A stretch of DNA of 64,000 nucleotides, from contig NC_135252.1 of the NCBI RefSeq assembly GCF_964204865.1, positions 11,408,001-11,472,000 on the forward strand, in the 5' to 3' direction. Position 1 is the stretch's first letter. Each line of letters begins with the position of its first letter. The notes below the pieces were generated by a model. That model worked only from the letters and a program-made list of their open reading frames with translations. It had not been told where the DNA came from and made no database searches. Below, one piece after another: positions 575 to 63,103 of this stretch. The position numbers and the translations under genes are program-made. The stretch comes from Styela clava. Lineage: Eukaryota.

Positions 575-3500
575 CGTGTGATCGAGGCATGAAAACAAGA
601 AGAAGACCATGTGATGGTGGAAAACCAGGTGATGGAGATTGCGTTCCTGCATCAGCACAAAAAGAAGAAGAAGCATGCAATGAAGTCACCTGTAGAGGTA
701 ACGATTTCAAAATCAACCCACTACATTTAACCAAATGCTTTAAATCTTCTCACTCCAAAGGGAGTTTAAATTCAAGAGCAACATTTTCAGTCCAGGCGAG
801 TCAGGTCTGTCGCTTCAAATTTTCCGATGTATATTTAACAAAATGTCTAAAAGGCATTAAATTAAAGTATATATTGCACAAATTGGTTCCGATATGCATG
901 CCGAATGGAAATTTAAAAAAAGGTAGTTTTATTCGAAATCGTATATAAATATCGTTATATCAACAGACTTTATTAAGTTTCTACGCGATTTTGACATTTT
1001 TATGTACGATGATGTTTTTCATGTTATCTCCAATACTAAACACCATTCAGTCGCTAAAATAATCCATCTCCTATTCAAACACGTATTTTTCAGATTGCTT
1101 TGACGTAGCAGGTTTTACGTGGTGTGCTACATACTTTACTATAAAAGAAAACTGCAAAGAATATCCAGCGCAAGCACGTCAATACTGTGCACTGACTTGC
1201 AGTTTGTGTCCAGGTTTGAATGAATTTTGCGTATATAAATGTCTTATTCCTATCAAAATTTCATAAATTGGACTCTCGAGGACTACACATATATAATGGT
1301 CACAGCTATGATTGCTGAGTTCATCTGTACTTCGTATTTAGGCATAAGTTTTCACTTCAGTAGACTACTCTATTGTAAAATAAGTTATTATGTTTGTTTG
1401 TTAACTTTTAGCGGTGCCAAGCGGAATAATATATATTTAAATTTTATCTCATCTTCGGAAACGCCTTTCTGAAAGCAATAGCACGCCCGAACGTAAAACT
1501 TCGGCCTGAATTATGTTGAACTTCGACTTTTTACCCGAACCAGTGTCCAAATAATTTGAGCAAAATTAGCACAATTCAAAGCAAATTGTATTGGAATATT
1601 ACAAAAAAGTGTGATCGTAGAACACATTGTTACATGTGGCAAAGATAAACTCGAACATCAGTAGAAAATATTCGAATTTTCATAATTAGTAAATTTGCTG
1701 TGAACTGAAGACTGTCGCAACCATTTACGAGACTCGCTTTCTAAAGATGTAGAAAATGATGCATGTAGATAATTTTCCACAATCCAAGAACAACTAAATA
1801 AATTTGATTCAATATGTAGGATTGCACGAGCATTGGCAATCTTGGGGACCCTGTTCTAGCAGCTGCGGAACAGGATTTCGAACTAGAACAAGAGAGTGCA
1901 AAAATAAAGAGTTGGGTTGTGAAGGCGAATCAAGCGAAGAAGACGTTTGCAAAGGTCCATGTCAAGGTAAATCTCTTTTATTGAAAATATAGCAAATGTG
2001 AAACATACGGTAAACACTCAAAAAATAATACCAATATCATAAGCAGTTATCCACAACTAAAAGTTATTGTTAAAACCCTATTAACCGATGATGATAAAAA
2101 AACGTATATGAATGTATATGTAATAGTTATATTTTCACGCAGGATTTAACCCATGGGGAAAATGGACAACATGTACGGAATCGTGTAACGGTGGAACAAG
2201 AACTAGGCAGCGAACTTGCTCTTTTAAAAAATGTGACCCAGATGAAAATGGAAATACATCTAAGACAGACAAAGAAAATTGTAACTTAGAACCATGCCCG
2301 GGAAAATGGGGAGACTGGGGTGCATGGGAATCCTGTAGTACGACATGCGGCGACAATGGAGAACAGATAGCAAGAAGAACATGTGAAGGCGGTAGGGCAG
2401 GAGGGCCGGGTTGCCTGGGCCTTGCTACGAAAACGAGACCATGCAGAAATAACAATAAATGTCCTGGGAAATGGAGTGTTTGGACTAAGTGGTCCCAATG
2501 CTCGGTTACTTGCGGTGGAAAAGGAACACGCACGAGAACACGCACATGTGAAGGGGGAGTTGAGGGACAGTCTGACTGCCCTGGATCTGCAACACAGACA
2601 GAAGACTGCGACGAAGGAAAATGTACTGCAAAATGGGGAGACTGGGAAGATTGGGGTGATTGTGATAAAGACTGTTCTCGTACCCGAACAAGGTATAAGA
2701 TATTACAATGATCTTTCTGAATAAAAAATATTTTGCAGCTGCAAATATTAAGTCATTTCAATTTTAAAATATAGGTTTCGGTTTGCATTAATTTACCTTG
2801 ATACGCCTATCATACCAACTCTCCACATAGAATTGTCCATAGTCGAGTATACGTTTTCCATATCTTGGCACCAACAATAATGAACTTATACCTTTTTCTA
2901 ATCTATATTCAAAAACACAATACGATAATCTTGAATTTTAATCCTATCTGGATAATGCATACCGAGTTCCAAATTGTGATTTGCGTTTTTTTCTTATATG
3001 TTTTAGTGAGGCTTGCGATTTCCTTTCTCTCACCAACGGTGTAATACGCATTATAAGTCAGATATTTATTTAAAACAGTAATGTATTACGTAATGTACGA
3101 GTTCTGTGCTTGTTGTTCGATTCGCTCATCTTGCAAAAGAATGTTAGTGGTTTTATATAGCGACACAAAAACCCTTTTGCCTCACTGTTTTTTTCTTATT
3201 ATTATTTGTATTTTGAAATATTCACTTTACGCCAGAAAATGTATAGGCGGAACAAAAGGAGATCGTGGATGCGAGGGTGAAGGCGAGCAAACTCAAGAAT
3301 GTGACAGTTCTCAATGTAAGATTTATATATTGCTAACATTGTACTTTGTAACATCGTTGGTTAACATTGTACTATTGGTTTTTGTGCAACTGGCGACCTA
3401 CCACGGGCCAAAACCCGGCCCTATAAGCCCTTCAGTATGGTCTTTATTAACAGTCAGAATTTCCCCAACAAGCATTAAATCCTAATCCGACAGTTCATTT

Positions 3501-4333
3501 TTAAAAAGGTGCTCACGTGGGAAAAAAATACATCATTCTCTTCTCTTGTCCTTCCCGCGGCGCTCTGCTTGTCGCTAATGTATTTCGTTTTTTAAATGAT
3601 TGTGTACATGAAACATCTAAATATCAATTTTTTTTTATGTGGCCCAGCTAGGTGGCTGAAGTTAGTTGTATATATTGTCTACCGACAAAAATGTTGCACA
3701 CGCCTGATAGAGACCATTACATTATCCACTACTGTATACAATCGTCGATATATAGTATACAGTCTGTATACAATTGTCGGGACATAAAATTTGTAAAATT
3801 CAACGTATATATTTAAAGGTCCCACTGATGGCTGCGATCCGAATAAAATCGATTTACATATATGGTGCAATTCGCTAACAACGGCAAATTGTTATGACCC
3901 GCAGTACGAACAGGCATGCCCGTGGACATGCTGCAAGGGTGAGTACTTTTCAATAATAATTTCTAAAAATTTGCGAAAAGCGATGGACATTTTAGGTTTT
4001 GAATGCATCTAAAATTCTTAATGATAGTATAAGCGTCGTAAGCTAATCATGGATTTAGGATAAAAATCTAGTTATTGATAATAATAAATAACAAAAACTA
4101 AATGCAATTTTTGTACGGAAGACAACGCTTGAATTCATTTGATGTTTTTTTGTAGCGAGTTCTAAATTTTTATTCAATTCGTTCGTTCACTAGTTCTCGG
4201 ACAAGTACCTTGCGAAGATGATCCAGCGCAAAAAGATAGCTACTGTGTTCCATATCAAGCTTACTGCAATGATCCGACCTATATTGCCACTTTCAAGCAA
4301 TACTGTAGAAAAACCTGCAATTTCTGTGAATAA
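575..4333 (+). CDS. G1: TSP1-repeat/ShKT protein, 5'-partial, probably secreted: (TSP1)-ShKT-5xTSP1-vicinal-Cys ShK variant-ShKT
   Basis: Exons 575-697, 1094-1213, 1820-1966, 2143-2692, 3236-3315, 3819-3938 and 4194-4333 join in frame via GT-AG. TSP1 motifs include WQSWGPCSSSCGTGFRTRTREC and WSVWTKWSQCSVTCGG. ShKT domains are DCFDVAGFTWCATY...CKEYPAQARQYCALTCSLC and the terminal CEDDPAQKDSYCVPYQAYCNDPTYIATFKQYCRKTCNFCE*. The start codon lies upstream of the window. Confidence 0.9.
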
Positions 4334-60900: not shown

Positions 60901-63103
60901 CGAAAAACCTTCTACGTGTAAATGCCGCAGATATAGGTATTTATATAAACACAATAAAATTCTTATTGCGTAAAACTGAAAATGATTCGTTTTATCAGGA
61001 TATGATGGTCTTTGATTAATTACCTGAAATTTATATATATTTTTCTAATCTTCAATCTTATCAATAATCGTTGGATGTTCGGGATTTTAGAATAAAACAT
61101 GCCTTTCTCTTTGACTAGGTTTTTATTTGGTGAAATAAAATGCGTAATTTTACGTGATATGAACTCAATATAATGGTCTTATCGAGCAATGGTTCCAATT
61201 TTATATTTGTATGTCAATGTGTTCAAAATAAATCAGCAGCATTTAATCTGGTTAGCATGTTTGAACATACAACACTTATGTCGCGTACATCATGGGTGGT
61301 ACACGAAATATAAGTTCGAGAAATTGTAACGCTGCATCCAAATCTGTACAGATCATATTTTGGCGTGTGTGCGTGTTTAAGGTTGCCGAAACAATTATAT
61401 TTATATTTATGTCTTTCTAGGAAATCTTCAAACCACTCAAAACCCAGAACAATTCCTCAGCGAAAGACGAACCAACAATCAAAGAAATTCAGCCTTTACC
61501 GACGATGAAGCAACAAACCAAATGCTCGAAAACCAAAATTTAATAATATTTAATAGAATTTAATCTGCGAGACAAATCTAACTCTAAACTTAAAAGTAAG
61601 AGGTGTTTTAGTTCGGATTGCACTTGAGACACTTTGTTCATTACCTAGAATGAAGAGCAGTGTTCGTTTAATTACTTATGGCTATCTCGCAATTATTGGA
61701 ATACTAAAAAATGCTTTAAACATACTTACTTTTTTATTTTCAAGCGTACAGTAATATTCTTATGATAATTAGGATGGAATTAATATTTGTTAGTGAATTT
61801 GTGGTTGAACGGCGTCAAACCATTGCGTCAGAAGGGCGGCGTCTGTTAGAAACTACGCATCAGATATTGTTTATTTATCAAAATATCGTATCTTTCGGTT
61901 TATTGCGTATAGTTGAAAATTTAATCTCAGCTAAGAATATTCTTCCGGAATGTGCAGGTTTTAAACAACGCTGTTATTCTGTTTCTCAAACCTAAGTTTA
62001 TTGGTGCAAACATAATAAAAAATAGTTATGTCAGTGGTTTAAATTTGAACCAATGAAAACGAAGATGAAAACAAAGATGAAAACTTTTAGGTATTATATT
62101 GTACCGATTACAATTTCTGCCATTTAGGAACCGGTTGAAAATTAATAATGATTGATAGAGGCATTTAAAACGCAAAGTGTAACACTAAACTGTTAGTTAA
62201 ATTCACAGTTCACAGCAGTAGTTTAAAGCGCACGTTGTCTTATACATTGATGGTTTATCTCCCGCTAAAATGGTATACAGATTTTGTTTAAAAGTGAACT
62301 ATTTTATAAGCTCAGTTGTAGTAATTCAATCTGAGAACTAAATTGATATTTTATCTGGAATATTAAAAAAAATGATACTCTATAACACAGGATTGGATAG
62401 AAATGTTATATTTTATTTTTATTAGTTTCACTTTTTAGTCGTTTAACAGTCGAGATTAAGTTTTACACTCTTATAAATATTAGGGCAAAGCACGAAAGTA
62501 ATTACTTTCTATTCCTTTGGAATTATAAAGAGCACAGAGAATGGTACGGACGGGATAAAGTTTCTCGCGGTCCGTTTCAAGCACTTTATCTCATAAATTC
62601 ATCTGTCGATTCTTCAAAATTGTAAATTTTGTTACGACAAAATAATAACATTGATAAAGTATCGGGTTTTATGATTTAACGAGGTTATCAGATGCTTGGT
62701 TTTGCATGCGTGTCGGCACTACATAATAATTCAAATATTTACTCAAATAAATGGGTAATTAGCAATTATTTTCATATATTCAAAAATCATCAACAAGTCG
62801 TTTGAAAGGGAGGACGTTTGATGAAGAAGCATTAAAAATTACTTCAAAGCAGTTTGCACGTGGAACGACACAAACTGTCCTACCAATCACGTCTATGCCA
62901 TTAAAATGAAATGAACAAATAATAGGCCCGATAACGATTTTGAGAATCTTTTTATTGAAACAAATATTTGAAATTGGCGATAGTGCACTCACATTGAATA
63001 AAAATAAACGAATTTCTCACTTACCTTGTGCAAGTCCGTTTTGGTAATCCACTATAAAACATAGTAACATAAATCCCACGAATAATCTTATAATTTTAGT
63101 CAT
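51991..63103 (-). CDS. G5: secreted prepro-protein (SP-acidic propeptide-RSKR-unassigned N-terminal domains-6xTSP1-ShKT), ~652 aa
   Basis: Exons in transcript order: 63025-63103, 59997-60297, 59214-59347, 58558-58762, 57079-57290, 55135-55280, 53573-53753, 52987-53485, 52691-52776, 51991-52106. Total 1959 nt with consistent intron phases. Signal MTKIIRLFVGFMLLCFIVDYQNGLA; D9 run; RSKR|Q; TSP1 WSQWTECSVSCGSG; terminal ShKT CKDELGIFCTERHISCYGNTGRKKCKKTCGYC*. The 57079-to-55280 junction is the least certain. Confidence 0.8.

Follow-up and report, generated by a model that had tools for sequence, protein, structure and literature searches.

The window analysed here is a stretch of 64,000 nucleotides of chromosome-scale DNA from Styela clava (G000:C3:11408001–11472000). 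It holds five genes (G1–G5, spanning positions 575–63103), each of which, in exon-by-exon models, encodes an array of TSP1 repeats and closes with a final exon of the six-cysteine ShK type. An earlier note on this DNA had described a five-gene cluster of such proteins. The five genes are borne out by the models and, for G2–G5, by RefSeq matches, but the cluster is larger and extends past the window to a sixth paralogue, G0, 14–27 kb upstream. A motif scan of 100 kb on each side found no family genes further upstream than G0 or past G5 on the downstream side. In all, three members of the array are canonical trypsins (G0, G1 and G2), G4 is a non-canonical copy, and G3 and G5 have no protease. 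The features of the window are

575..4333, + strand: 3′ part of G1; seven exons encoding TSP1, ShK, a TSP1 array, ShK(CC) and ShK.
9995..18014, − strand: G2 (LOC120343309); 18 exons, 895 amino acids (aa), signal-ShK-EGF-EGF-trypsin-TSP1x8-ShK(CC)-ShK by model and Pfam.
14729..17033, − strand: protease exons of G2; RIIDG activation site (cleavage after Arg), His-Asp-Ser, Asp194, Asp189 and the insert CQRCxxCxW, by alignment and motifs.
23201..23641, + strand: inverted, broken copy of the last ShK exon of G2 with its 3′ flank, between G2 and G3.
26589..28988, + strand: G3 (LOC144420832); six exons, 256 aa, signal-ShK-TSP1x3-ShK.
31892..41391, + strand: G4 (LOC120341783); 21 exons, 1065 aa, signal-ShK-EGF-EGF-protease homologue-TSP1x7-ShK(CC)-TSP1x4-ShK.
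34233..36573, + strand: protease-homologue exons of G4, by alignment to plasma kallikrein and the family.
51991..63103, − strand: G5 (LOC120343310); 10 exons, 652 aa, signal, Cys-His, acidic stretch, RSKR, helical domain, TSP1x5 with a truncated repeat, and an ShK-type end.
57079..60297, − strand: N-terminal domain of G5, without a name (about residues 28–311); four exons.

The gene models were built by hand from AG/GT exon ends and open frames. Those of G2 and G5 are identical to XP_039268384.2 and XP_039268385.2, that of G4 differs from XP_039266278.2 by five residues only, through donor choice at exon 2, and that of G3 is contained in XP_077966641.1, which begins 23 residues earlier. Spliced contigs, compared for G3, G4 and G5, support these models, with GT..AG joints for five of five, at least eight of 20 and at least seven of nine introns, respectively; one of 3,963 nt covers the G4 exons from 35366 to the 3′ end. 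The contigs come from four runs guessed to be RNA, no listed run being recorded as such, and runs X3 and X5, which give no cover of G5, are not informative for it. Pfam TSP_1 stretches number eight in G2, three in G3, 11 in G4 and five in G5. Hydrophobic N-termini were judged by a hydropathy scan, not by a signal-peptide predictor. The proposal of related, secreted-type mosaics is supported. An ShK module next to the last one, as had been proposed, is found in G2, but in G4 the second ShK sits in the middle of the array.

Older RefSeq records label these proteins as hemicentin, SCO-spondin or ADAMTS20. The hallmarks of this group are, respectively, Ig arrays, VWD/LDLa domains and a metalloprotease domain, and none of these was found in Pfam scans of G2–G5. 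The labels track the TSP1 repeats; behind the ADAMTS20-like record stands a model that fuses G3 with G4. Treatment of these two as one gene was rejected: G3 contigs pass its stop codon and continue into a 3′ flank, and G4 begins with a separate spliced leader.

G1 is not protease-less. Its start lies 9,967 bases upstream of the window, and the upstream half would encode signal-ShK-EGF-EGF and an intact trypsin, giving a predicted protein of 1324 aa with an open frame, AG/GT at 26 of 26 introns and the motifs RIVGG, GHC, NDIAL and DSCRGDSGG. The intact trypsin described for G2 is likewise present. The His57-Asp102-Ser195 triad occurs in G0 (1163 aa, with one GC donor), G1 and G2, as do an activation site of the Arg-Ile-x-x-Gly type, with cleavage between Arg and Ile (RIVGG, RIVGG and RIIDG), and a Ser195 motif (DACRGDSGG, DSCRGDSGG and DACQGDSGG) with Asp194 and Asp189 kept; the activation sequence of G2, IIDG here, is IIGG in the other RefSeq allele. 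All three are predicted to be secreted, canonical S1A trypsin-like zymogens. The intron phases over the first 11 exons (2,1,1,1,1,0,2,0,1,1,1) are identical in G0, G1, G2 and G4, the first three (the 2,1,1 leader) are shared by G3, and the leader of G5 differs in consisting of one exon.

The positions of Cys1 and Cys122 are invariant in 16 aligned proteins, so that activation would leave the N-terminal ShK attached. Extra family cysteines form a CC pair before the activation peptide and two positions in the CQRCxxC insert (window 14729–14923 and relatives), and another often lies just past the protease domain; these cysteines could tie the catalytic domain to the segments on either side. The suggestion that G2 processes its neighbours finds no support in their sequences: G4 has no Arg-Ile/Val site, G3 has no pro-region and the RSKR of G5 fits a furin-type convertase. 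Instead, G0, G1 and G2 could plausibly activate one another, since all have a P1 Arg and Asp189.

G4 had been called an atypical trypsin, and it is indeed non-canonical: the triad is kept, and the Ile16 motif, Asp194 and Asp189 are gone. His217, Asp266 and Ser361 occupy the positions of His57, Asp102 and Ser195 in both RefSeq alleles, and the core cysteines are invariant in the family alignment. The Arg-Ile/Val activation motif is absent, Ser360 stands at position 194 (Asp194 to Ser), and the pocket is replaced by Gly355 at 189 (Asp189 to Gly), Glu at 215 and Ser for Gly226. In the structure model of G4 the barrels are confident and the predicted local distance difference test score (pLDDT) falls below 50 at residues 171–180, 306–314, 350–360 and 384–391. 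These stretches are the four activation-domain loops, a weak indication as other loops are also low and the model is without a G2 control. Foldseek confirmed the chymotrypsin fold and did not tell active and zymogen forms apart. G4 is thus likely, from its sequence, to be a non-catalytic pseudoprotease. Splicing and an open frame through all 21 exons show that the gene is not dead. Among the differences listed for 34332–35710, part of the protease domain, seven of the ten coding ones are silent. A one-exon search for relatives of G4 returned G4 alone among 13 candidates.

The intact triad and invariant core cysteines would also suit an active protease with a non-trypsin pocket, one whose active shape needs no N-terminal insertion or is reached only in complex with a partner. 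Outside S1A, some enzymes of the chymotrypsin fold have GxSGG-type motifs and no Asp194. However, the described exceptions, tPA and C2a, keep an acidic residue at 194 (PMC13194640), and replacement of all three pocket positions as well as the low scores of the activation-domain loops also speak against activity, which is judged improbable. As a likely pseudoprotease, G4 resembles vertebrate PRSS23, which keeps the triad, has lost the Ile16-Asp194 switch, is secreted and showed no activity (PMC13194640); both switch residues are lost in G4 and Asp189 is also gone. Unlike PRSS23, G4 is a 1065-aa mosaic with canonical ascidian trypsins as its closest relatives, so that its loss looks independent. 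Insect serine protease/homologue pairs are likewise active and inactive S1A paralogues in gene clusters. Insect serine protease homologues (SPHs) typically have clip domains and a replaced catalytic Ser; the Pfam scan found no clip domain in G4 and Ser195 (Ser361) is retained, so that G4 is not of the clip-domain SPH type.

An unspliced contig (7,025 nt, depth 60 in run X3) covers window positions 33340–40327, most of G4, in runs X1 and X3 of one study. At 40327, where it ends, 28 letters match exactly the 146-base repeat at 13592–13884, which is absent from the window at that point. The contig may represent DNA, or a transcript, antisense or read-through, that comes from a polymorphic mobile-element insertion.

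The layout ShK-EGF-EGF-trypsin-TSP1n-ShK-ShK occurs in full in Ciona savignyi H2ZIH0, Clavelina XP_076801654 and three unnamed records. The earlier note did not recognise this architecture as a named family, and a literature search, with subscription journals outside its scope, found no name for the order signal-ShK-EGF-EGF-trypsin-TSP1n-ShK either. A CQRCxxCxW-type insert after Ser195 is present in all full-layout proteins and in 20 of 29 aligned protease domains, none of them vertebrate or insect rows; in a sister group the TSP1/ShK modules stand ahead of the protease. Protease trees were calculated from 29 rows and from a 17-row version that omits 12 of them, with PRSS23 in neither. G0 and G1 pair with support of 100/100 and G2 joins two unnamed records at 99/95. 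G4 groups with Ciona, Clavelina and JGI proteins at 99/95 with 29 rows, but at only 88/79 with 17. A Styela-only clade of G0, G1, G2 and G4 is rejected in the approximately unbiased (AU) test (p=0.006), which suggests that the duplications in the array are probably old, with caution owing to the long branch of G4. The term 'twin' applied to G4 and G2 does not hold: identity between the two protease domains is 35%, and the AU test marginally rejects a clade of G2+G4 (p=0.046).

Clustering is not special in this genome: one trypsin exon gave 119 genome matches of 150 candidates scored, many of them in arrays, and a second, related cluster lies on C9. This cluster (G000:C9:10.84–10.97 Mb, L033–L045) contains at least eight CQRC-type trypsin genes with ShK/TSP1 before the protease. 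Trypsin arrays and derived pseudoproteases recur: a copy near C9:10873851 is without Ser195 and without the activation motif, and Clavelina XP_076802162 (P0081; ShK-EGF-EGF-EGF-protease homologue-ShK-ShK, no TSP1) has lost His57 and Ser195 and by its sequence is a separate pseudoprotease of the same family.

G3 lacks protease cargo, as had been stated, and its model is signal-ShK-TSP1x3-ShK, with the terminal ShK identified by its cysteine pattern alone. It is likely a derivative from which the EGF-EGF-protease exons were lost.

The RSKR motif of G5 is of the site type of furin-type convertases. The proposal of a furin-processed novel region in this protein stands in so far as the motif precedes a region with neither a name nor a Pfam family at cut-off; the cleavage itself is predicted. 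No description of the domain was found in the literature, subscription journals being outside the search. Residues 74–311 have 26 homologues at E ≤ 0.001 among 1.84 billion representatives. Records were looked up for 20 of these: four are unnamed, and the 16 named ones all belong to Ciona, Phallusia, Clavelina or Styela. In 27 of 27 aligned G5-type N-termini a Cys directly follows the hydrophobic leader, with His next in 22; an RxK/RR site lies within the first 170 residues in 23 of the 27, often with a second between the two halves. C20, W44, C53, C64, W65 and C86 are invariant in a 31-row alignment, and what follows the domain are TSP1, EGF, Sushi, trefoil, CUB, ZP-N or WxxW modules. It is an unnamed, predicted secreted module whose named relatives are all from sea squirts. 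Exon searches of the Styela genome for paralogues of the domain gave G5 itself and two weak matches, yet two Styela homologues are among the 26.

The predicted structure of the domain is all-helical (pLDDT 82, predicted template-modelling score 0.79). Foldseek against the PDB gave no matches at E ≤ 0.001, VIA-align against 48,161 chains, which mainly tested residues 3–162, gave a best Z of 4.8 (root-mean-square deviation 3.9, 87 aligned) and none at Z ≥ 5, and ESM Atlas returned no usable match with either the domain or its homologue P0139 as query. The second half of the model is barely covered, and these negative searches do not amount to a demonstration of a new fold.

The best full-length counterpart of G5 is Clavelina CAK8695104/XP_076801658, which is collinear over its length with 29% identity (E 7e-69) and is sister to G5 at 84/58 only in the tree of G5-type domains, from which two of 27 rows, under 120 residues long, were dropped. 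Its accessions are 10 (CAK) and 4 (XP) numbers away from those of a family protease, CAK8695094/XP_076801654. Accession numbering can reflect position, since Styela G2 and G5 carry consecutive XP numbers, although it remains a proxy; judged from these numbers only, the Clavelina counterpart probably lies near the protease. Such linkage could arise from a co-regulated secreted module, linked since early ascidians, in which the trypsins, G4 as a cofactor or decoy and a G5-type protein act on one matrix. The closeness of the two Clavelina accession pairs (longest contig 26,535,022 in both), the splicing of G3, G4 and G5 in a single run (X9) and the modulation of protease cascades by insect protease homologues, reported in a preprint (bioRxiv 10.1101/2025.09.30.679548), are consistent with this. 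However, the linkage comes from accession numbers with the intervening genes unseen, presence in one run of unrecorded tissue differs from co-expression, and old tandem linkage needs no shared function. The relatives of G4 in Clavelina and Ciona are moreover canonical trypsins, so that a pairing of active and inactive copies is not ancestral. A module of this kind is therefore considered unlikely, though it retains an appreciable chance. The broader idea of one co-evolved secreted system is only partly supported: the related mosaics and, by the accession proxy, the linkage in Clavelina speak for it, and the twin relationship, the processing by G2 and the release of ShK peptides are not supported.

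By the six-cysteine pattern there are 17 ShK-type modules in the six proteins G0–G5, and every module in the window has an exon to itself. Six of the 12 window exons pass the Pfam ShK cut-off, three match below it and three have no match; among the terminal exons those of G1 and G2 pass, those of G4 and G5 fall below and that of G3 has no Pfam support. A PDB sequence search with the last ShK exon of G1 gave no matches. The abundance of these modules might suggest that the proteins carry ShK peptides that G2 frees and whose targets are potassium channels in predators, microbes or gametes, but release, as the earlier note envisaged it, has no support in the sequences. All modules are embedded and the six proteins share no conserved release site, the linkers before the last ShK are 3–9 residues long with Lys or Arg not followed by Pro in two of six (G1 and G5), and an adjacent Lys-Tyr pair in the loop between the third and fourth cysteines is found in none of the 17. 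This dyad is described for ShK toxins, and the dyad-less ShK of MMP23 can still modulate Kv channels (PMC6409789), so that its absence leaves channel effects possible. Trypsin-ShK fusions are common in sea anemones, where they are shuffled as single exons (PMC6767649), and a role as peptide carriers is very improbable. The inverted copy of the last ShK exon of G2 at 23201–23641 is 85% identical to it over 110 nt and 70% over 471 columns, and the match ends after 31 codons.

The locus is best explained, with fair probability, as a tandem array, likely old, from an ascidian family of modular trypsins that has no name and whose members likely work as matrix-tethered proteases. G0, G1 and G2 would be secreted, tethered zymogens activated by cleavage between Arg and Ile, possibly by each other, with the ShK-EGF-EGF chain kept in place afterwards by a conserved bond, Cys1-Cys122. 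Through its TSP1 rod the enzyme would be held in an extracellular matrix, for instance tunic, mucus or basal lamina. The ShK modules would be binding caps that stay attached and are not released as toxins. G4 would be a non-catalytic copy binding the same surfaces or partners without cutting. G3 would have arisen by deletion, and G5 would be a TSP1 protein that has another kind of leader and a nameless domain, likely cut by furin.

Several points weigh against this explanation. It draws on sequence, and the tethering on what is generally known of TSP1 repeats. Between the two RefSeq alleles, 25 of 1065 residues of G4 are different, compared with seven of 895 for G2 and two of 652 for G5, and the divergence of G4 relative to G2 points to relaxed constraint; conversely, with all three triad residues kept in both alleles, G4 could still cut something. 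A clade of G2, G4 and the two relatives of G2 is not rejected (AU p=0.23), and the long branch of G4 (2.1–3.3) leaves its placement unsure. The probable linkage of a G5-type gene to a protease in Clavelina hints at more than a passive array.

The domain set of the tethered trypsins is not unique to ascidians, since trypsin-TSP_1-ShK proteins are noted in four sea anemones, where tandem duplicates and non-catalytic copies occur (PMC6767649). In the trypsin-ShK and trypsin-TSP1-ShK proteins of these animals an S1A trypsin is likewise joined to ShK, each on its own exon (PMC6767649). Compared by domain content, the Styela genes differ in their N-terminal ShK-EGF-EGF, long TSP1 arrays and CQRCxxCxW insert. 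The ascidian Tast astacins (PMC11673157) and Tuphoxin (PMC9395347) also join an extracellular enzyme to TSP1, for which a matrix tether is proposed; their catalytic domains are instead astacin and tyrosinase, and the word ShK is absent from the Tuphoxin paper (PMC9395347). Another candidate for comparison is Ciona KH.L96.43, whose probe, at 1,698 nt, is much shorter than G2 (PMC10962819).

These observations describe an ascidian-wide modular protease family that is mislabelled as hemicentin, SCO-spondin or ADAMTS in databases, and a reading of the cluster as a toxin-delivery or cascade system is unsupported. Specialist attention is best directed to the lesion of G4 and to the domain of G5. G4 is a natural case for asking whether a chymotrypsin fold with an intact triad and no Ile16-Asp194 switch is dead, with its canonical relatives as controls, and the G5 domain is a clean secreted module without a name, with 26 homologue clusters, open to structure determination. 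A more far-reaching proposal is that the N-terminal region of G5 represents a family of tunicate domains that is new, with a helical fold of its own and a Cys-His peptide that stays latched by a disulfide after furin cuts. It would be fused to TSP1/EGF/Sushi/CUB/ZP/WxxW cargos and linked to the trypsin family since the Styela-Clavelina split for joint building or remodelling of the tunicate extracellular matrix, with G4 a triad-intact, switch-less scaffold; taken as a whole this combination is doubtful.

About 36 kb upstream of the window, a frame of 151 codons (L017:3970–4422, + strand) has the look of a secreted precursor, with an RRKR site, a basic tail and no Pfam match. Intergenic repeats lie at window positions 21789–22028, 22342–25008, 25416–26055, 44400–45000 and 47800–47950 and include a PHD-finger-like fragment, a duplication spaced by 2.1 kb and multi-copy elements with high contig depth.

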